This document shows positions 11,339-34,249 of a stretch of DNA of 48,021 bases, piece by piece; position 1 is the stretch's first letter; every line of letters starts with the position of its first letter. This DNA is from a virus, in IMG/VR virus record IMGVR_UViG_3300037721_000009, positions 1 through 48,021 of that record. The stretch is one strand, 5' to 3'. The notes below the pieces were generated by a model that had not been told where the DNA came from, made no database searches, and saw only the letters and a list, made by a program, of their open reading frames with translations. The translations under genes were made by a program, and so were the position numbers.

Positions 11339-11360
11339 AAAGGGCCTATAAGGCCCTTTG
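11339..11360. terminator. Bidirectional hairpin terminator (AGGGCC-tataa-GGCCCT)
   Basis: It lies between the convergent portal (+) and endonuclease (-) genes, overlaps both stops and has A/T runs on both sides. Confidence 0.6.
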
Positions 11361-12509
11361 TTCTACATATTTAATAATCGCCGGTTCATACCTTAGCCAT
11401 TCCGTGCAGCCATCGAACCCTGAAAGTCCAGCGCTCATGAATTCATTATGAGCGGATCTTTCTGTGTCACGCGCATTCGAACCTGATGTCTTGAATACCC
11501 CGTCAACGCTAAATGGAAACGGAGTAGCCTTAGATAGTTGCGGTATGCGTACATCAGGCTTATTTGTTATACCTACTTTCATGTAAGCCCCGCACTCGCT
11601 CCTAAGTGCATACACATAACCATCCATGTCACTCTTGAATCCGTATTGAGCGCAAGACGGACACCGCCTATCGTGATAAACGAGGTTTGCAAATGAAATC
11701 ATGAACGCTCCATGATCTGTGCAGACTGCATATAGCATTGACATTGTGTTTTTCTTTAGGTCTTCACTGTGCCATCCGCCAAATGCATAGCCTTTAGACT
11801 TTGCTGCTGATCTCGCCTTATGCTCAAGCTCTGCCAGTGTCATTCTATAGCTTGGCGAGCAGCGGCATGGAATAAGACCTCTAGACATATTCCTTCTTGA
11901 TATATAGAAAGCGTTAGGCCCGACTCCAGATAGCGCAATATCATCATTCGCGCATGACTGGCATACCATGGTCCACTTACTGTCCATACTTACGCTGGGA
12001 ATTAAAATAGTGCCGGCCTTATAAGTCTCTCCGGCTAGCGCTCTTTCTACATAAACCGAATCAGGTATATAAGCATTCTCTGCATTCTTTTCTATTGCAC
12101 AAACTGGGCATGCGTGGCCCTTCAGGAAGCTAGACATCCTTCCAGTATTCCACTTGCCATGCTTATAGCAATTAAGGCTGATCGTAGAGTGGCAGCCTGA
12201 AATCCCTAGCGGGAATCCAAGAAACTCATATCCAAGTTTTTGAGCCTGTCTATGAAGAAGAATCTCCCACTGCCATTCCTTCCATTTTGGGCCTGCCGCG
12301 CAACCACACGGGATAACGCCTCGATCTTGGACTTGCGAGCGAATGCAGGTCATTGCTCCTTCAGGCCATAACTCTGAATCTAGCGAGCAGATTGAGCACT
12401 CGCAGGTATACCTACGATCTCGCCTATGGCTGAAATAGCCTGTAATAGTGATGGTCCCGCCTTTAGGTGTAGTAAAGGTCTTGCCAACAAATGCATCAGT
12501 TTTCTGCAT
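11346..12509 (-). CDS. Free-standing homing-endonuclease-like protein: duplicated Cys-rich module + C-terminal T5orf172/GIY-YIG-superfamily domain (387 aa)
   Basis: Track ORF. The C-terminus (GYVYALRSECGAYMKVGITNKPDVRIPQL...TEWL) resembles the T5orf172 domain. It is on the opposite strand, between the portal and Mu-F-like genes, and is visibly more AT-rich. Confidence 0.65.
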   Translation of the reverse strand: MQKTDAFVGKTFTTPKGGTITITGYFSHRRDRRYTCECSICSLDSELWPEGAMTCIRSQVQDRGVIPCGCAAGPKWKEWQWEILLHRQAQKLGYEFLGFPLGISGCHSTISLNCYKHGKWNTGRMSSFLKGHACPVCAIEKNAENAYIPDSVYVERALAGETYKAGTILIPSVSMDSKWTMVCQSCANDDIALSGVGPNAFYISRRNMSRGLIPCRCSPSYRMTLAELEHKARSAAKSKGYAFGGWHSEDLKKNTMSMLYAVCTDHGAFMISFANLVYHDRRCPSCAQYGFKSDMDGYVYALRSECGAYMKVGITNKPDVRIPQLSKATPFPFSVDGVFKTSGSNARDTERSAHNEFMSAGLSGFDGCTEWLRYEPAIIKYVEQRAL

Positions 12510-14798: not shown

Positions 14799-16031
14799 TT
14801 ATCTGCGGAGGCGGGCGGGGAGGAATACGCCGCCAGAAGCCTTAAGCTTCATGACGGGTTCAAGCGCGTAACGTATTGCGTCTATGTAGTGGTTCCAGTC
14901 GTCAACGATCACAGGGAGAATGTCGCCGGATAGGCGATCAACCTTGTACCCGTATTTCCTGAACTCTTCCTGCACCTTGACGCAGCGAGTATGAATGACC
15001 ACCTCCTGATAGCTCTTGATGTGTTCTACACCGTCCTCTACGCTGCCCTTTCCCTTGGTTGCACCTTCTATGCGAGATATCCCATGGCGCTTCAGGTAGC
15101 TGATAGATTCAGGTCGTGCGCAGTCTGCACGGACGGCATGCTCAGCGAACCCAGGAATGCGTTCATTGACGTATTGCGCCGTATCGTCAAGCTCCAGCCC
15201 TATGCGTCCAGCCTCGTACTCAATATAAAGCCTGTCTTCATAAATCCAGCACTTGACCGCCGCCGTAGGATCTTGGGCGAACCCGAAGTCGAGTCCGTTA
15301 TAAGGGCCATCCCAGTCAGAGCCTGGCTCAAAGTCCGCTATACGTGACTTTCCTGCGAAAACCTGCGCATCGGTACGGCTAAGGTAATCGCCCTCCCAAA
15401 TGTGAGCATAGGTCGCGCTATCCATGGTCTTCAGCGCGTGAAGTCGCTGTTCTTCAAGCTCAAGAGGGAACCACGGATTGTCTGAATAGTTCATTTCCAC
15501 GATGCAGGATCGCGGCGGGGTGTTCTTTACGAATCTAGTGTCGACAGGGCTTCCGTCTAGGCGAGGGTTCCAAATCAGCCAGATCTCTGATCCTGGCGCA
15601 CGGATGGTTGGCTCTAGAGCTTGCCATGATGCCTCAGGTACGTCCTCGGCCTCCTCTACGATGCACAGGTCGATCTGCGCAAGCGACTTGATAGAGCCTA
15701 TGTTGTGGCGCAATCCCTTGAAAAGAAACTCGGTCCCGTTCTTCCCTCGCAGATAGTCCACGCCAACATCATAAGCAGCCTCAAGCCACGGTTCTGACGC
15801 AATGGCGTTCTTTAGCTCAGCGTGGAATGACTCTTTGATCGACGCCTGAAGTTCGCGAGTACAGAGGATGCGTAGAGGCTCGATAACGCCCCATATAGCA
15901 GCCATTTTGGCGAATGTAAAACTCTTAGCTGACCCTCGGCCACCTCTTGCACCGCGATACCTAAGAGTTCCGCGTGGATGACTGAAAACCTCAACCATCT
16001 TGGGCGGCAGGCGTATTTTCGCCGTGCTCAT
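14799..16031 (-). CDS. terL: Terminase large subunit
   Basis: Track ORF of 410 aa. It has a Walker A-like motif (RGARGGRGSAKSF), a PBSX/Terminase_3-like organisation and an ATGA overlap with TerS. Confidence 0.88.
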   Translation of the reverse strand: MSTAKIRLPPKMVEVFSHPRGTLRYRGARGGRGSAKSFTFAKMAAIWGVIEPLRILCTRELQASIKESFHAELKNAIASEPWLEAAYDVGVDYLRGKNGTEFLFKGLRHNIGSIKSLAQIDLCIVEEAEDVPEASWQALEPTIRAPGSEIWLIWNPRLDGSPVDTRFVKNTPPRSCIVEMNYSDNPWFPLELEEQRLHALKTMDSATYAHIWEGDYLSRTDAQVFAGKSRIADFEPGSDWDGPYNGLDFGFAQDPTAAVKCWIYEDRLYIEYEAGRIGLELDDTAQYVNERIPGFAEHAVRADCARPESISYLKRHGISRIEGATKGKGSVEDGVEHIKSYQEVVIHTRCVKVQEEFRKYGYKVDRLSGDILPVIVDDWNHYIDAIRYALEPVMKLKASGGVFLPARLRR

Positions 16032-25895: not shown

Positions 25896-25960
25896 TTCCT
25901 TACCCTACCAAACGCTATGAATGTTCACCCAATTTACGGTGCTGCTGGGTTGGCGTCAAG

Positions 25961-26686
25961 CTATTTCCATTCGAGTTTTTGATTCATCGGCGGAATAGTC
26001 TCAAGCGTCGCCAGATTGATGAATGTGAAATAGCCGTCAGCAGTCCAGCCAGCGGTGTCGATGTGGTAGACGTTGCCTAGAACTACAGGCAAACGCAGTG
26101 GGGTGTGTCCGCAGATAACCGCGCGAACGCCGTCAACGCCTGAATGATCCTCAGCGCCGATGCGCTTTCTGGACCACTGGAGCATTGATGCTATGTGATC
26201 TGATTCGTAATCGTCACCCTCTAGCGCCGACACCATTCCCTGCCAACTACCACGAGGGACATCTGCATGGACGATTCCGACCGTTCCAGTGTCAGTCTCA
26301 ACCTCAATAGCTAATGGTAAATCAGCCAGGATTGACGAATAGCAACCCTGATCGACCTCCGATATCCCATAGAACCATGCTCCGCCATTGATAAAGTGCA
26401 TCCCGCATTGATCGCTCTGCCGGCCAGTCTCGTAGGAATCAATGGTCATCTGCTCGTGATTCCCGCGTACAGCGTGGAACCATGGTTTTCGTAACAGCCA
26501 AGTATCCACATCTAGCGAATCAGGCCCTCGATCAACCAAATCACCAACGCTGAATAGTCGGTCTTGGAGTGGATCAAAGCCGATACCATCCAGAGCCTTT
26601 TGCAGCTTGGTGAAATGCCCGTGAATGTCGCCGACGCAGAAGTCTCGGCCTGCTGTGTTTTTGGTGAAGCGTTTGATTTGGTTCAT
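25961..26686 (-). CDS. Ser/Thr protein phosphatase, lambda-phosphatase-like metallophosphoesterase (241 aa)
   Basis: Track ORF with motifs GDIHGH, GDLVDRGP and GNHE (VRGNHEQM). Confidence 0.85.
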   Translation of the reverse strand: MNQIKRFTKNTAGRDFCVGDIHGHFTKLQKALDGIGFDPLQDRLFSVGDLVDRGPDSLDVDTWLLRKPWFHAVRGNHEQMTIDSYETGRQSDQCGMHFINGGAWFYGISEVDQGCYSSILADLPLAIEVETDTGTVGIVHADVPRGSWQGMVSALEGDDYESDHIASMLQWSRKRIGAEDHSGVDGVRAVICGHTPLRLPVVLGNVYHIDTAGWTADGYFTFINLATLETIPPMNQKLEWK

Positions 26687-26695
26687 TCAATTCTC

Positions 26696-27040
26696 CTAAT
26701 ACAAAATGTGCATGACTTTTACGTCGGAGAGTTCGGCGATTCTGGTCATATCCCGTGTACCACTGCCACCAGGAAACGCAATCACCCCATCAGGCTCCAG
26801 CGCGAGCATGGCTGCGTTTCGTTTTGGTCCTGCTCCATTACCGTAGAGCTTCCAGTTAGCAATCGCCGTGAACACCTGCACACCCTTCTCTAGCGCCCAT
26901 TCCCTAGCCAGTCGATCAGCCCCGCTGGCGCCACCCTCGATAATCGCGTGGATGGTGCATTTCTTGTGCACGCCGTCGAGCACCTGATTCAGTCTGGCTC
27001 GGTCTGCGTAATCACGTCCGCCGCATACGATGAATTTCAT
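26696..27040 (-). CDS. Stand-alone SLOG-superfamily protein (DUF2493-like, 114 aa)
   Basis: Track ORF. MKFIVCGGRDYAD...IIEGGASGADRLAREWA...GPKRNAAML...VIAFPGGSGTRDM matches the remembered DUF2493/YspA-type Rossmann pattern. Confidence 0.6.
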   Translation of the reverse strand: MKFIVCGGRDYADRARLNQVLDGVHKKCTIHAIIEGGASGADRLAREWALEKGVQVFTAIANWKLYGNGAGPKRNAAMLALEPDGVIAFPGGSGTRDMTRIAELSDVKVMHILY

Positions 27041-27092
27041 TGTGTGTTCCTTGTGGTATTTCGGTTAGGTTTCAGTCCACCTAGTCGCCATC

Positions 27093-27296
27093 GGTTGCAT
27101 TCACCCCGTGTAATACACTGGGGGAATGCATGCAACCGCTAAGGTTCTGGTTGCACGACGGTTGCATAGCCTGCTAATCATATTTTAAAACCCTTTATAA
27201 TCAATGCTTTACGTGGTTGCATCAATGCAACCGTTGGATGCAACCGTGCAACCGTGGTTGCATTTAAGCATGCAACCAGACAACCCAAATGCAACC
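27093..27296. repeat. Iteron array: 11 perfect copies of TGCAACC/GGTTGCA (most extend to ATGCAACCG) split by an AT-rich spacer; candidate replication origin or operator array
   Basis: GGTTGCA occurs at 27093, 27149, 27160, 27215 and 27256. TGCAACC occurs at 27131, 27226, 27239, 27247, 27271 and 27290. The AT-rich tract spans 27168-27212. Confidence 0.85.
27177..27204 (-). promoter_or_regulatory. Sigma70-like promoter TTGATT-16-TATGAT (minus strand) inside the AT-rich spacer of the iteron array
   Basis: The reverse complement of 27199-27204 is TTGATT, and of 27177-27182 is TATGAT. It reads toward the SLOG/phosphatase genes. Confidence 0.5.
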
Positions 27297-27324
27297 GTTT
27301 TTACAACCACTTGTATATACAACC

Positions 27325-28539
27325 TCAATACATATCTGGTCTGGTGATTTTCCCGCCTTCCCCCTTTATAATCCACTCATCGGCTATCAACTTCTTGATG
27401 CCGCGATCCCATGACGCCTTTGTTGTATTGTCCTTTTTGTCTGCGCCCATCATGGCAAAGTAGGTATCTCGCAGATAGGTATAGAAAACGAAGTCGTTAC
27501 CACTCCTAGACATTTCTGTCGCGATTAGGTTGTGGATGATCTGCGAGCTTCCTGTCAGGTCTTCACGCTCCGGAATGGCAGAATCTGAAGCCTGGGTAAG
27601 CGTAAGGCTTGTCATCGATCGCCCCTTCTTGTCCTTGCGCCCAATCTCTACCACGTTAAGCTTGAATGCTAGGTCTTCAAATGGATCCGAGTCCTTTGCT
27701 TTGGTGCAACTGATCTTGCTCGTCTTCTTGGCCGAGCTAGTGACCTTGTATTCAAAGTCGCAGGCTGCCCGTAGTGCGCTTGAGCCCCTCGCGCCTTTCT
27801 CTGCATCCTTGCCGCTGTGGTGGATGACGAGGATGGTGGCGCCGGTCTTCTCTCTGATGTGGTCGCACGAACTAACAAATGCACCCATATCTGTTGCGCT
27901 GTTTTCTTCACCGTCAAATGAGCGAGCCAGGGTGTCTATCACGATCAGCCTGATAGGCTCTGCGATTTCATCGGCAAGCTCCTCACAAAGAACAACAAGC
28001 CCGTCGCATTCGGCAGAGTTGATCGTGACTGCCGAGCTGAGAATCCCTAGATTGGTTAGCGGCTTATGATTCCGAATCTCCCATGCCTTTTTTCGCAAAT
28101 GCAACCCAGCAGCACCCTCCGCACCTATATAAAGGACGTGACCAGGCTCGTCTACATCGTGACCATGCCAATTCATTGACGATGCAATGCTGGCGCTCAT
28201 ATCCATTGCAATGAAGGACTTGTATGATCCAGAAGGCCCGTACAGCACACCGAACGCATCAGCCGGCATCACCTGATCGATAAGCCATTGCTGGTTGGCG
28301 ATCATGTCGATTGCGTCGTCTGAGTTGTAAGCTACTCGCTTCCGCAGCGGACTTTGTACCTTTGGTGTTCTAGCCAATACTTCGTCATAGGCGGTCTGAG
28401 CCCTGATCATGCGCAGGTTTGCATCGCCTACAAGCAGCATTCCTTCGACTTCATCAATGCTGGTGCACGCTGCAATCCTATTGTGCTCAAGGATTGCATC
28501 AGATAACTCGGCGTGAGCATCCTTTAGCTCTTCATTCAT
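27325..28539 (-). CDS. RepA/AAA_25-like RecA-fold ATPase (putative replicative helicase/initiator, 404 aa)
   Basis: Track ORF 27325..28554 (GTG) trimmed to ATG 28539 (ATGA overlap with the AlpA-like gene). Walker A is GPSGSYKS and Walker B is LIVIDTL. It also has ..ILVIHHSGKD..GARGSSAL.., as in RSF1010 RepA-type helicases. Confidence 0.7.
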   Translation of the reverse strand: MNEELKDAHAELSDAILEHNRIAACTSIDEVEGMLLVGDANLRMIRAQTAYDEVLARTPKVQSPLRKRVAYNSDDAIDMIANQQWLIDQVMPADAFGVLYGPSGSYKSFIAMDMSASIASSMNWHGHDVDEPGHVLYIGAEGAAGLHLRKKAWEIRNHKPLTNLGILSSAVTINSAECDGLVVLCEELADEIAEPIRLIVIDTLARSFDGEENSATDMGAFVSSCDHIREKTGATILVIHHSGKDAEKGARGSSALRAACDFEYKVTSSAKKTSKISCTKAKDSDPFEDLAFKLNVVEIGRKDKKGRSMTSLTLTQASDSAIPEREDLTGSSQIIHNLIATEMSRSGNDFVFYTYLRDTYFAMMGADKKDNTTKASWDRGIKKLIADEWIIKGEGGKITRPDMY

Positions 28540-28694
28540 AGGTTGCGCTCCCACGCCTCAATGTCAGACACCCTCCATTTGTTGCAGCCTAGCCATACCG
28601 GCTCAGGAAATCCGCGATTCTCAATCCATCGATAGATGGTACGATCAGAAACCCCAAAGCGCCCAGCGACATCCCCAATTTTCAAATACTGCAT
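28536..28694 (-). CDS. AlpA/MerR-like excisionase-family HTH protein (52 aa)
   Basis: Hand-found ORF: MQYLKIGDVAGRFGVSDRTIYRWIENRGFPEPVWLGCNKWRVSDIEAWERNL. SD ggaga lies 8 nt upstream. Confidence 0.7.
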   Translation of the reverse strand: MQYLKIGDVAGRFGVSDRTIYRWIENRGFPEPVWLGCNKWRVSDIEAWERNL

Positions 28695-28784
28695 TCCGTT
28701 ATCTCCGGTCGTTATGCGTCACAGGGTGTCAATCTTACACCATTCTTTGACATGGAAAACACTTGATGAAAAATAATTGATGTG

Positions 28785-28793
28785 TGTTAGAAT
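28785..28793 (+). promoter_or_regulatory. Extended -10-like element TGtTAGAAT (plus strand) upstream of the HNH/helicase operon
   Basis: gtgTGtTAGAATtg lies ~80 nt before GTG 28875. An inverted pair TGTCAA...TTGACA lies at 28727-28754. Confidence 0.35.
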
Positions 28794-28874
28794 TGTGTTG
28801 CGGGTAGGACGGCCATCCGAAAAGCGCCTCGTCAGCGCCTCCCGCAAATCCTCTGACGACCACCAGACGGGTGC

Positions 28875-29450
28875 GTGCCATTGAAAATCTGTACCAAATG
28901 CAATGCTGAAAAGCAAGAATCAGAATTTCATTCTCACAGAGAAACCGCAGATCGACTAAGGCCAGAATGCAAAGAATGCATTAAGGCTTATCATCGCGCC
29001 TATCATCTAAGGAATCGTGACGTTCAGCTAGAAAAGCAGAGGATCTACAAGGCGGCTAACAAGGATGCAATCTCTGCTGCTGGCGCGATCTACTACGAGA
29101 AAAACAGAGAGACGATAATCGCCAGGGTAGACAGATACCGGCATGAGAATTATGAATCTGTTTTGCAGGTGCTTAGGAATAGGCGCGCAAGAAAGAAAAA
29201 CGCTGCTGGCTCACATACCAAGCAGGACATTCAGGCACTGATACTTTTGCAGAAAGGCAAATGCGCAGCCTGCATGGCGAAGCTTCGTATCGAAGGCAAA
29301 GGAAAATACCACATCGACCATATCGTTTCGCTTGCTCGAGGCGGCTCGAATGATAAATATAATTTGCAAATCCTTTGCCCGTCCTGCAACCTTAGCAAGC
29401 ACGCAAAAGACCCCATTGAATGGGCTCAGAAAAACGGGAGATTACTTTGA
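28875..29450 (+). CDS. HNH endonuclease (191 aa, GTG start)
   Basis: Track ORF. N-terminal CxxC...CxxC. C-terminal HNH core: KYHIDHIVSLARGGSNDKYNLQILCPSCNLSKHAKDP. Confidence 0.8.
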   Translation: MPLKICTKCNAEKQESEFHSHRETADRLRPECKECIKAYHRAYHLRNRDVQLEKQRIYKAANKDAISAAGAIYYEKNRETIIARVDRYRHENYESVLQVLRNRRARKKNAAGSHTKQDIQALILLQKGKCAACMAKLRIEGKGKYHIDHIVSLARGGSNDKYNLQILCPSCNLSKHAKDPIEWAQKNGRLL

Positions 29451-31246
29451 CAATTCAGCTAAGGGATTACCAGCGGGACGCGTTCGACAAGGTTATCGAA
29501 CACTTCAGGTCGGCAAAGGGTAACGAGCCGGCGTTCGTCGATATGAGTGTTGGCTCAGGAAAGACGGCTCTAGCCGCTTTCGTCGCCAATCATACCGCCA
29601 GCAAGGGCGGGCGCGGAATGTTGATTGCGCGGCAGTCAGAGCTTGTTCTTCAGTCAGGCCAGTTCATGGAGAGTATCAACCTAAAGGTTAGCTACTACTC
29701 AAATGGCTTGGGCAGCAAGAACGCGCATCACAACGTCATCTGCGGCACAGAAGGCACAGTTGTTCGCGCATTGGATACAGCTTTTCAGAGCTGGAAGCCT
29801 GACTTCGTGATCCTTGATGAATGTCACATGATCAACTACGAAAACGAAGAATCGATGATGATGAAGATCATTATCCACTTCCAGACTCTAAACCCAAAGG
29901 TTCGCATACTTGGGCTGACCGGCTCACCATTCAGGGGTGTCGAGCCTATCCTCGGAGACTTCTGGACAAAATGCCTGTACGAGATATCAACCGAGTTTTT
30001 GGTTGGCGAGGGCTGGTTATGTGGCCCTGAATTCGGATGGCCCGAGCACCAAGAGGATACTTTCAACTTCGACCAGCTTGAGCAGAAATACGGAACGCAC
30101 GAATTCACCGATGAGCAGATGGATGAATTCCGCAATGGCGACCCCAAGCTAACAGCTCGTATTATGGCGGAGGTGGTTCACCGCACGTCTGAGGATCTTG
30201 GGGTCCTGATCTTTGCGCAGACAAAGAAGCATTGCCAAGAGGTAGCGGATTCGTTGCCGCCTGGAAGCTGGGGGATCATCACCGACGACTCTACAGACGC
30301 TGAGCGTGCAGATGTATTCGCTAAGGCTAAGTCAGGCGCCATCAAGTATACGATCAACGTAGGAGTATGCAGTACGGGGTGGGACTGCCCATACTGGCAG
30401 GTGGTTATCTACCTTCGCCGTATTGGGTCACTCGTGTTCTTCATTCAGTCTATGGGGCGCGCTGCTCGCCTCTTTATTGAGTCCGGCGTGGACATGGGCC
30501 AGATAACGAAAGAGGAGCGCCTGCTTGAGATCGCTGCAAGCCGCAAGCCTAACTTCAAGGTGCTTGACTTTGCCGGTGGTGTCGAGAAGCTTATCCAGCT
30601 TTACGAGAACGAATTCCTTGCGCAAGCTCAATTTGAGAAGTCCAAGCGCGAAGGTAGTGTTATCTATTGCCCTAAATGCAGCTGCGAGAATTCGGACAAG
30701 GCAAGGCGCTGCATTGGTACGTCAAGCACGGGTGTGCGCTGTGATTTCTTTTGGATAAAGACTGATTGCCGGCAATGCGGTGCGCACAATGACGTAACGG
30801 CTAGAGAGTGCCGCCTATGTAAATGTGAACTGATCGACCCAAACCTCAAGCTTCTACACAAAGCCTACACAGACCAAGAGCTAGTCGCGGTCGAGAGGTG
30901 GGAGTTTGACAAGACAAAGAACGGCGGGCTTCTGGTCCGATACATCCTTGAAGGCGATAAGCCTGACCATGGTTGGCCGATTGAGTTCTACGCGCCATGC
31001 GGTAGCCAGACGGCTAAGCGTGTCTGGTACAACAACTTCGTTAAGCTGCACGTTCGCTGTCCGAAGTGGCAGTCGAAAATCTATGTGATGCGTTCGGTTG
31101 ACGCGATCTTGGGCATGAAGGCGGCGTTTAGTCGGCCTACGCATATTGCCTATCGCGTGAATGAAAAAGGCAAGCATGTTATCGGGCGCCGTAAGTTTAA
31201 CAACGGCGAGACGCTGGATCAGAAGGGAGCGACTGTAAATGAGTGA
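29420..31246 (+). CDS. Superfamily-2 DEAD/DEAH-type helicase with C-terminal Zn-ribbon cluster (608 aa; start uncertain)
   Basis: Track ORF. Walker A is VGSGKT and motif II is DECH. C-terminal pattern: CPKCSC...ARRC...CRQCG...CRLCKC. ATG 29420 has no SD. TTG 29447 has SD gggag and forms a TTGA overlap with the HNH stop. Confidence 0.85.
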   Translation: MGSEKREITLTIQLRDYQRDAFDKVIEHFRSAKGNEPAFVDMSVGSGKTALAAFVANHTASKGGRGMLIARQSELVLQSGQFMESINLKVSYYSNGLGSKNAHHNVICGTEGTVVRALDTAFQSWKPDFVILDECHMINYENEESMMMKIIIHFQTLNPKVRILGLTGSPFRGVEPILGDFWTKCLYEISTEFLVGEGWLCGPEFGWPEHQEDTFNFDQLEQKYGTHEFTDEQMDEFRNGDPKLTARIMAEVVHRTSEDLGVLIFAQTKKHCQEVADSLPPGSWGIITDDSTDAERADVFAKAKSGAIKYTINVGVCSTGWDCPYWQVVIYLRRIGSLVFFIQSMGRAARLFIESGVDMGQITKEERLLEIAASRKPNFKVLDFAGGVEKLIQLYENEFLAQAQFEKSKREGSVIYCPKCSCENSDKARRCIGTSSTGVRCDFFWIKTDCRQCGAHNDVTARECRLCKCELIDPNLKLLHKAYTDQELVAVERWEFDKTKNGGLLVRYILEGDKPDHGWPIEFYAPCGSQTAKRVWYNNFVKLHVRCPKWQSKIYVMRSVDAILGMKAAFSRPTHIAYRVNEKGKHVIGRRKFNNGETLDQKGATVNE

Positions 31247-33568: not shown

Positions 33569-34249
33569 CTATAAGAGCTTCCCGTTTTGTTTTGCAAATT
33601 CAAATGGGTCTTTTGCGCTTTTTGTCAGGTTGCATGATGGGCAAGCAAGCTGGATATTCGTTATAGAATTGGATCCTCCTTTGCTAATGGGCTGAATATG
33701 GTCAATGTGGTACTTCGAGACGCCTGACTGCTTTAGCTTCTTTTTGCAAATTGCGCACATCCCTCTCTGCTTTGAAAAAAGGATAGTTATCTCTTGAGCG
33801 GTAAAACTTCCGCCACCTCCGGCTATGATCGCCCTTCTTTTTTGGCAGTGAGCCCGCTTTGACATTGGGTTTTTATCTTTCCACGCTCGGCTAACGCTCA
33901 ATATTCTCTCTTTATGCCTTATATATCGGATGGCCGACCAAGCAGAAACCTTTTCTGGGTTTTCCTTTTTATAAGAGGCAACCTTAGCCTTCAGGCGACC
34001 CTTGTTCTCATTGTAATATTCTTTATGCTGCTTTCTTATTTCGTCTCTATTTTCCGAATATCTCTTAGCCTTCCTTTCCTTCTCGGACTGCTTATTCTCT
34101 TCCTGCCAAGCTCTTGCGCACTCTTGACACCCGCCATTATCCGTCCTCCTTTCTGAAAAATGATTGTTGGAGCACAGCCTGTGGCTGACGTAATGAGATA
34201 GTCCTGATTCTATCGCTATAGACCTTTTGATTATGTGTAGATGCTTCAC
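33569..34249 (-). CDS. HNH endonuclease, paralogue of 28875..29450 (226 aa, GTG start)
   Basis: Track ORF. HNH core: KYHIDHIQPISKGGSNSITNIQLACPSCNLTKSAKDPFEFAKQNGKLL. It is AT-richer than its neighbours. GTGA overlap with the XRE gene stop. Confidence 0.8.
   Translation of the reverse strand: MKHLHIIKRSIAIESGLSHYVSHRLCSNNHFSERRTDNGGCQECARAWQEENKQSEKERKAKRYSENRDEIRKQHKEYYNENKGRLKAKVASYKKENPEKVSAWSAIRYIRHKERILSVSRAWKDKNPMSKRAHCQKRRAIIAGGGGSFTAQEITILFSKQRGMCAICKKKLKQSGVSKYHIDHIQPISKGGSNSITNIQLACPSCNLTKSAKDPFEFAKQNGKLL

Follow-up and report, generated by a model that had tools for sequence, protein, structure and literature searches.

A repeat array directly 3' of a RecA-fold helicase gene as the probable replication origin of an uncultured siphovirus lineage

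What is the role of a dense array of short repeats that lies directly behind the gene for a replicative helicase? The question is raised by the IMG/VR virus record IMGVR_UViG_3300037721_000009, of which positions 1-48,021 were analysed (48,021 nt; this whole stretch is called the window below). The window is an uncultured siphovirus of about 48 kb, a full-size phage and not a phage-inducible chromosomal island (PICI). Its array fills the 284-bp gap at 27041-27324, between the stop codon of a minus-strand AAA_25 helicase gene and the ATG of a YspA/SLOG gene. An initial annotation, made from the letters alone, had offered two readings, namely a replication origin or a set of operators for a promoter embedded among the repeats. 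We consider it likely that the array is the phage replication origin and that it forms one cassette with a winged-helix (WH) domain of the helicase encoded directly upstream. The many sites, the low-GC centre and the conserved palindrome, which are co-inherited with a replicative helicase's DNA-binding domain, are best explained in this way.

The array is built on a 7-mer that is found exactly 11 times within 204 bp (27093-27296), where about 0.03 copies would be expected. It reads GGTTGCA at 27093, 27149, 27160, 27215 and 27256 and TGCAACC at 27131, 27226, 27239, 27247, 27271 and 27290, and degenerate GGTTGTA/ACAACC copies continue to the helicase stop codon. The positions of the copies, the degenerate copies and the size of the gap are as the initial annotation had reported. 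Its remark that most copies extend to a longer form also holds, with ATGCAACCG present in 6 exact copies and in 4 more with one mismatch (10/11 with at most one mismatch). Its statement that only two copies exist elsewhere (9922 and 33628) was wrong, as the window holds 11 further copies; the total of 22 compares with 7.2 +/- 2.5 in dinucleotide shuffles, the copies outside the array are scattered and not significantly enriched, and there is no second cluster in the 48 kb. Degenerate sites begin 3 nt and exact sites 28 nt past the helicase stop, an arrangement that recurs in all relatives in a comparison set of about 25 related phage loci (close relatives L001-L023 and L098-L100). Several other readings of the repeats were discarded. 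A sigma-54 reading of GG..TTGCA was rejected by eye for its wrong spacing, and a DnaA-box reading because there was no match. Coding across the gap was likewise rejected: the open reading frames (ORFs) of 75-96 aa called in relatives translate the repeat sequence and have no conserved counterpart in the window. Such ORFs, called over the arrays at L006 3702-3929, L009 3992-4276, L011 3666-3956, L099 2970-3239 and L001 3422-3712, are almost certainly spurious.

Read in the direction of helicase transcription, the order of elements is the stop codon, a proximal block, an AT-rich spacer, a TAGCNNGCTA box, a distal pair, a terminal palindrome and a flank, GATGGCGA. The helicase-proximal iteron block (27214-27324) contains seven exact copies (27215, 27226, 27239, 27247, 27256, 27271 and 27290) as well as the degenerate ones, and its sites lie mostly in one orientation. 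Its spacer-side end is a tight inverted pair, GGTTGCAT-TG-ATGCAACC, at 27214-27233, and the two degenerate sites next to the helicase stop surround a TTGTATATACAA palindrome. The distal iteron pair (27149-27167, with sites at 27149-27155 and 27160-27166) has the orientation opposite to most proximal copies; across the array, the exact sites run >><>>>< in the proximal seven and <<>< in the distal four. Between the two lies the spacer (27168-27213), 46 bp of about 30% GC, in which the lowest 40-mer has 23% GC vs about 51% for the genome. By analogy with known origins, this spacer is proposed to be the DNA-unwinding (melting) region. It also holds an IHF-like match, AATCAATGCTTTA, to the core consensus WATCAANNNNTTR at 27199-27211 on the plus strand, which is shared by L001 and L002 but absent from the other array types.

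The distal end of the array is formed by a terminal imperfect palindrome and its flank (27085-27138). The palindrome of 45 bp (27092-27138), which the initial annotation had recognised from the first two repeat copies, is real. Its outer stem is the inverted iteron pair 27093-27099 / 27131-27137, further in, a C-run pairs with a G-run beneath a TA-rich apex, and the conserved flank TCGCCATC at 27085-27092 marks the distal end of the cassette. Folded as single-stranded DNA it reaches -14.4 kcal/mol, with z = -5.0 vs shuffles. Equivalent palindromes of different sequence at eight loci give z values from -3.0 to -7.3, so that it is the structure that is conserved. This evidence comes from DNA folds of each sequence separately with shuffle controls; RNAalifold run on a MAFFT alignment of 12 palindromes returned no structure, the arms being misaligned. 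An Rfam scan of 26600-27800 (E<=1) found nothing, and the palindrome is thus not a known RNA element. Across the sequences compared, a terminal palindrome flanked by inverted iterons appears as a constant feature of this phage lineage.

A small palindromic box, TAGCCTGCTA (TAGCNNGCTA), adjoins the first distal iteron at 27167-27176 and is the sole occurrence of its kind in the 48-kb window. The same box is found in the array zone of 7/23 related loci that carry three different iteron words, recurring in L001, L002, L008, L021, L098 and L099. It has nine matches in 11 kb of array zone vs five in 125 kb elsewhere, an enrichment of about 20-fold. This enrichment across words points to a factor that would act independently of iteron specificity. 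A second non-iteron box, GCCCTAGTGCCACGCGGGTTTCA, can be seen in long-N-terminus relatives (L010 ~3733+205..+230, L098 2967+136..+160 and, in reverse, L099 2967+76..+100), where it is common to arrays with different words; it is not in the window.

The same plan is found 3' of every related helicase: a proximal block, a low-GC centre, a distal block and a palindrome flanked by inverted copies. The centre between the two iteron blocks has a GC fraction of 0.20-0.35 in all related arrays. What differs by locus is the repeat word. The window shares GGTTGCA with L001 and L002, and the other words are GGTTACAT (L003-5), GGTCACA (L006, L015, L018 and L019), GGTTTCA (L011), GGGTTCA (L010), CGGGACAT (L009, L020, L023, L098 and L099), TGGGACA (L012 and L022), CGAAACA (L008 and L021), CGAAGCA (L013), GGTAACA (L014) and CGGACAA (L100); the forms listed also include TGGGACAT. 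When the two closest groups are aligned, their sites correspond one to one in position and orientation and the same G-to-A difference is present in every copy. Judged from this alignment, such a concerted change in all copies is the mark of sites whose reading protein evolves along with them. The design seems to reach well beyond these loci: across 80 distant AAA_25 loci, the top 7-mer occurs 5-10x in the 450 nt after the stop vs 2-4x upstream of or inside the gene, an array signal that makes the design general for this helicase family. The array of L011 (3697+100..+170) is a hybrid, with ten GGTTTCA sites and two sites flanking the AT-rich centre that are ATGCAACCG, the word of the window; this reflects either recombination between origin types or tolerance of one-base variants at those positions.

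Which protein, then, reads the word? The repeat word follows only the C-terminal 75-80 aa or so of the helicase, and recognition-helix class and word co-vary one to one over about 12 specificity classes. For example, NT[TA]KA[SA]WDRG goes with GGTTGCA (3 loci), SNTKMAWDRG with GGTCACA (4 loci), [TA]SRTQF with CGAAACA (2 loci) and [AT]TRK[SQ]FRR with TGGGACA (2 loci). DRKAF[ST]R goes with CGGGACAT at 5 loci, and two of these were prospective predictions: the word was predicted from the helix for two unexamined proteins (P0084 and P0098), and both arrays matched. This co-variation supports the C-terminal WH domain of the helicase as the predicted reader of the repeat word. The binders that the initial annotation had suggested, the AlpA-like helix-turn-helix (HTH) protein and the N-terminal ~100 aa of the helicase, are contradicted by their discordance with the word. 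The AlpA-like protein is 100% identical in L006 (word GGTCACA) and 94% identical in L009 (word CGGGACAT), yet that of L002 is only 36-41% identical to the protein of the window and goes with the same word. The helicase N-terminus of L002 is 49% identical and, again, the word is the same. Nor can the helicase core determine the word, as L004/5 and L006 are 91-92% identical in the core and differ in their words.

The helicase itself has a domain structure that fits such a role. Its gene occupies 27325-28554 on the minus strand and would encode 409 aa from a GTG at 28554, an ORF that overlaps the AlpA-like gene by 19 nt (28536-28554). An ATG at 28539 (residue 6, Met) is conserved in all relatives and forms an ATGA overlap with the AlpA stop, which suggests translational coupling of the two genes; this ATG is most likely the start, and a 404-aa product is predicted. 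The gene does not run to 28694, as the initial annotation had it, for 28536-28694 is a separate gene for a 52-aa AlpA/HTH_17 protein. The helicase has an AAA_25 Pfam match (E 2e-39), and an AlphaFold2 model (predicted local distance difference test, pLDDT, 90) divides it into an N-terminal helical hairpin, a RepA/AAA_25 RecA-fold core, a flexible linker, of low confidence at residues 325-329, and a C-terminal winged helix. The best fold match of the core in the PDB (Foldseek) is the hexameric helicase RepA of RSF1010 (1NLF/1G8Y), with a target-normalised template modelling (TM) score of 0.68-0.72; 1OLO is also among the top matches.

The C-terminal WH coding region (27328-27552, minus strand; residues 335-409) encodes the proposed iteron-binding domain. 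Its topology after the linker is H-S-H-H-S-S in the AlphaFold2 model, and when it is modelled alone (pLDDT 79) the Foldseek PDB matches are all winged helices (ORC1, MCM, Cdc6/ORC2, cullin WHB and E2F/DP; TM 0.55-0.68). No Pfam family covers the domain and a profile search against PDB sequences gave only chance matches (E>0.1), and the fold is therefore assigned from structure prediction and Foldseek. The predicted recognition helix, NTTKASWDRGIKKLIA, spans residues 376-391 (encoded at 27382-27429). The residues that vary among relatives are 371-381 (ADKKDNTTKAS), at the turn and the start of the third helix. It is typically there that proteins with a winged helix touch the bases of DNA.

The WH domain and the array also appear to travel together. 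DNA identity between the window and L002 is 77-95% from the WH coding start to the end of the palindrome and then, just past that end, falls from 80-95% to about 40%. At the other edge, identity between L005 and L006 drops from 73-88% to 38-57% at the linker. By these profiles, WH domain and array recombine and are co-inherited as one cassette. The genes downstream differ freely among loci with the same array. The AlpA-like gene exists in at least three to four sequence types that are 36-52% identical to one another (window, L002, L005, L011 and L012). These types assort independently of helicase core, N-terminus and origin type, which makes the 2-kb module a fine-scale mosaic.

Among known systems, this design is the one that phage satellites use. 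The Reps of SaPIs (Staphylococcus aureus pathogenicity islands) are self-loading helicases whose C-terminal WH binds 6-12 iterons directly 3' of rep, set in opposed orientations with an AT-rich centre (PMC9371898). The PICIs of E. coli are reported to be organised alike, and a rep-ori fragment of EcCICFT073 drives plasmid replication (PMC6092414). With these systems (Rep1, Rep2 and PriRep5; EcCICFT073) the phage shares a probable origin 3' of an initiator-helicase, two iteron sets and a predicted C-terminal WH, and its AT-rich spacer corresponds to the AT-rich centre of their origins (PMC9371898, PMC6092414). Those systems also have cognate Rep/iteron specificity variants ('alleles'), to which the pairs of WH class and word in the phage family would correspond, and Gram-negative PICIs have an AlpA-type HTH gene upstream (PMC9371898; PMC6092414). 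The defining arrangement of a PICI/SaPI rep-ori can be recognised in the window point by point, as the array directly follows the initiator-helicase ORF on its 3' side, its short iterons are split into two sets around an AT-rich region with at least two opposed iterons on each side, and the initiator has a C-terminal winged helix in its predicted structure.

The differences are equally clear. The phage is about 48 kb long with its own virion and lysis genes, whereas the satellites are 10-15 kb and bear an integrase. Both the SaPI Reps that have been characterised and the Pri-Rep of EcCICFT073 belong to AAA+/SF3 (MCM-/D5-like), unlike the RecA-fold helicase of the phage (PMC9371898). SaPI iterons are 5-6-mers and the words of the phage are 8 bp long; in addition, the phage family has a conserved terminal palindrome with inverted iterons, and no fused or adjacent primase. 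The window is also no PICI in its gene content, since such an element would be a small integrated satellite with an integrase, att sites and incomplete virion genes. A RecA-fold version of the design does occur on an island. The distant relative L036 maps to a PICI-like island of about 11 kb at tRNA-Pro, with homologous DNA in 1717/5426 complete E. coli genomes. The gene order on this E. coli island is integrase, HTH, ash, icd, RepA-family helicase, array, SSB, capsid and terS, and the RepA-family helicase fills the slot of the D5/P4-alpha-like Pri-Rep of EcCICFT073 (L097 = CFT073). One copy, L095 (RM11911 chromosome 1485368-1495636), encodes an AAA_25 helicase that is 43% identical to the core of the window's, and the array after the island helicase has about nine AAGTGGG copies around an AT-rich centre. 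The design is one that phage satellites already show, and the difference here is a full-size phage with a RecA-fold rather than an AAA+ helicase.

Two further systems are useful points of reference. Like the phage helicase, the alpha protein of P4, a functional analogue, combines helicase and C-terminal WH in one polypeptide, and its WH binds the origin by recognising an octamer, the type I iteron, which is repeated in both orientations (established knowledge, with mentions in PMC6092414). P4 alpha differs in being a primase with a D5/SF3 helicase, whereas the phage helicase has a RepA/SF4-like fold. The P4 ori does not lie directly 3' of the gene and needs a second cluster, crr, whereas the phage has one cluster in 48 kb. 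The lambdoid ori shares iterons beside an AT-rich region and specificity types that are exchanged among related phages. In lambda, however, the O gene itself contains the iterons, the O protein is no helicase and P loads host DnaB; the array of the window is intergenic, no O/P homologues are present and the phage encodes its own helicase. The initial annotation had invoked plasmid and lambdoid origins for repeats beside an initiator/helicase gene. Its placing of an origin there is the reading with the best support, with a layout kept at every related helicase and matching the PICI/SaPI rep-ori, which has been validated by experiment; the lambdoid likeness is a loose one.

These comparisons suggest how the origin may work. 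We infer origin function, binding, melting, self-loading, the role of the palindrome and the use of a host primase from homology of organisation and from co-variation. The helicase core, hexameric and with a RecA fold like that of RSF1010 RepA, would be tethered by its flexible linker to a WH domain that reads the 8-bp word GGTTGCAT. Many WH domains would occupy the sites, 11 exact and 3-4 degenerate, in two blocks of opposite orientation bias, so that helicase rings would be concentrated and assembled on both sides of the 46-bp AT-rich spacer. The spacer would then melt and the helicase would load itself, with no separate initiator or loader, before host primase and polymerase take over. After unwinding, the distal 45-bp palindrome would probably extrude as a hairpin, which may serve as a loading or priming signal.

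Several points weigh against reading the array as an origin served by the helicase's own WH. The association of WH and word is drawn from about 12 specificity classes; the WH coding region and the array are neighbours, and linkage alone would give some co-variation; and a binder encoded elsewhere in the genome is possible. Overall WH identity does not cleanly separate the classes, for L001 and L011 are 81% identical and their words differ by one base, so specificity would have to rest on few residues. In L011, two sites of the GGTTGCA type stand among GGTTTCA ones. Foldseek gives the isolated WH model weak E-values of about 0.02, although every match is a winged helix. The scan of 28 ORFs (Pfam, PHROGs) turned up no gene for a primase or DNA polymerase, and priming is on that account assumed to be done by host enzymes. 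The array region may be transcribed, having no terminator, and holds a promoter-like site, so a regulatory role is possible. Finally, the cumulative GC-skew minimum lies at about 28-29 kb, in a divergent control region, and the array lies elsewhere; this is uninformative because the minimum coincides with a switch in transcription direction, for which reason GC skew was dropped as independent evidence on the origin.

If the array is an origin, its variety may have a further meaning, which we put forward tentatively and regard as rather doubtful. WH and iterons could be a mobile origin-specificity cassette under diversifying selection, with the palindrome and the TAGCNNGCTA box as the specificity-independent half of a bipartite origin. 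The basis for this is the existence of at least 12 mutually exclusive word/helix pairs among close gut siphoviruses, together with hybrid arrays (L011). Diversification could be driven by replication conflict, for instance with satellites or co-infecting relatives that hijack the helicase, or with origin-directed nucleases of the kind ICP1 uses against PLE. The specificity-independent half would act as a hairpin signal for loading or priming, recognised by a conserved factor from host or phage. To our knowledge, no second origin half of the palindrome or box type has been described for SaPI/PICI origins.

The strongest rival explanation of the repeats is an operator field, bound by a regulator (the helicase WH or another protein) that controls the embedded promoter into the YspA-like gene. 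In a variant, the bound array would act as a transcriptional roadblock and set the time at which genes further downstream are read from the early operon of the helicase. We judge this unlikely. The candidate promoter is a sigma-70-like match, TTGATT-16-TATGAT, on the minus strand at 27204->27177, with 9/12 consensus matches; it points to the YspA-like gene, lies in the spacer with repeat sites on both flanks and, if active, may drive 26696-27040 and/or activate the origin transcriptionally. Promoter-like matches in 26500-29600, however, number 3 vs 3.7 in shuffles, and the TTGATT-16-TATGAT promoter is therefore not supported statistically. With identical promoter criteria across 19 related loci, such a match in the AT-rich centre is seen at 1/19, the window itself, and in L001 and L002, the closest relatives, the -10 element has decayed. 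Sites and promoter are thus not conserved together, as an operator array would have them. The AT-rich tract of about 45 bp and the match within it, both reported by the initial annotation, are therefore present (the tract being 46 bp), but the good promoter it described has no statistical support and is not kept in the relatives, and the reading of the repeats as operators of that promoter is not supported.

Other observations speak for a regulatory role. At 10/19 loci a good promoter lies 30-60 nt past the array, within reach of a bound protein; the window has no terminator after the helicase stop and its YspA-like gene has no other recognisable promoter; and the tight inverted pairs (GGTTGCAT-TG-ATGCAACC) resemble classical dimer operators. 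In five relatives (L008, L010, L012, L013 and L100), however, a canonical intrinsic terminator follows the helicase stop and precedes the array, which thus lies between a terminator and a separate promoter. At least 11 sites over more than 200 bp and a conserved palindrome far exceed what an operator needs, the promoter region of the sole co-varying protein is upstream of the array and about 1.5 kb away, and the downstream genes vary among loci with the same array. A secondary regulatory effect of the array is possible alongside origin function. Near-identical promoter cassettes are found past arrays of different specificity and ahead of different genes (L001 3425+286 and L005 5212+263; TTGACG-17-TAAATT in L018 and L020; TTGTGA-17-CATAAT in L003 and L009), and the promoters of these phages thus seem to be exchanged as modules in their own right.

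A second rival keeps the origin and changes the initiator. In a tripartite origin like that of IncQ plasmids, a separate initiator (an analogue of RepC) would bind the repeats, the helicase would be recruited and the palindrome would be an ssi-type signal for a dedicated primase. The helicase core is indeed structurally nearest to RSF1010 RepA, the structure of the palindrome is kept across loci, and the order of repeats, AT-rich region and hairpin-forming palindrome recalls the IncQ oriV (iterons, AT-rich region, ssiA/ssiB; the RSF1010 side is established knowledge). Yet RSF1010 RepA has no sequence-reading domain and leaves the binding of 20-bp direct iterons to RepC, whereas the phage helicase has its own WH and the phage words are 8 bp long and lie in both orientations, not as direct iterons of 20-22 bp. 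Scans of 28 ORFs against Pfam and PHROGs gave no RepC-like initiator, RepB' homologue or other primase. Nor does a separate initiator account for why the word co-varies with the helicase's own WH or why the breakpoint of co-inheritance falls inside the helicase gene, at the linker. We therefore hold this arrangement to be very unlikely, and the terminal palindrome to be at most a loose analogue of the ssi sites.

Least probable of all is another kind of repeated site, be it for packaging (a pac/cos-type site of the terminase small subunit), a partition centromere, or chance or selfish repeats: short repeats in two orientations with an AT-rich or bent centre are generally known from pac/cosB sites and plasmid centromeres too, but the array is always directly 3' of the helicase, swaps with the WH and lies about 11 kb from the terminase gene (14799-16031), no partition genes were seen, and chance is excluded by the conservation of site number, order and orientation across about 35% protein divergence.

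The setting of the origin candidate is that of a complete phage. Among the genes of the window are those for terminase, portal, capsid, tape measure, tail and endolysin, for a DEAD-box helicase and a RecE-like exonuclease, and for several HNH endonucleases; no integrase was seen among the ORFs scanned. Related phages are contigs of 48-49 kb, and metagenomic relatives are plentiful, with matches at more than 560 AAA_25 loci in IMG/VR. Among deposited phages there is no characterised close relative, as megablast of 25900-29500 against 50,697 phage records gave no match and every tblastn match was below 60% identity. Past the array lies the minus-strand YspA/SLOG-family gene (26696-27040), whose ATG at the 27040 side borders the gap. 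Upstream of the helicase gene lies the minus-strand AlpA/HTH_17-like gene (28536-28694, 52 aa; Pfam HTH_17 and Phage_AlpA). A divergent control region at 28700-28900, with two plus-strand promoter-like matches (28747-28774 and 28766-28793), separates the minus-strand AlpA-helicase operon from a plus-strand operon for HNH and DEAD-box helicase. At least three genes of the HNH/endonuclease VII type are present, at 28875-29450 (+), 33569-34249 (-) and 11346-12509 (-), one of them wedged between the divergent promoters and the DEAD-box helicase; these are possibly homing endonucleases.

The array and the helicase together provide a probable origin and initiator for an uncultured lineage of gut siphoviruses of about 48 kb. 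The finding leaves the current understanding of such origins unchanged. A satellite-type replicon in full-size phages, built on a RecA-fold helicase, bears on the ancestry of satellite replicons. The family also offers a natural series of at least a dozen matched pairs of WH domain and 8-mer that differ by one to a few residues or bases, and this series is well suited to work on a WH recognition code and on orthogonal replicons.

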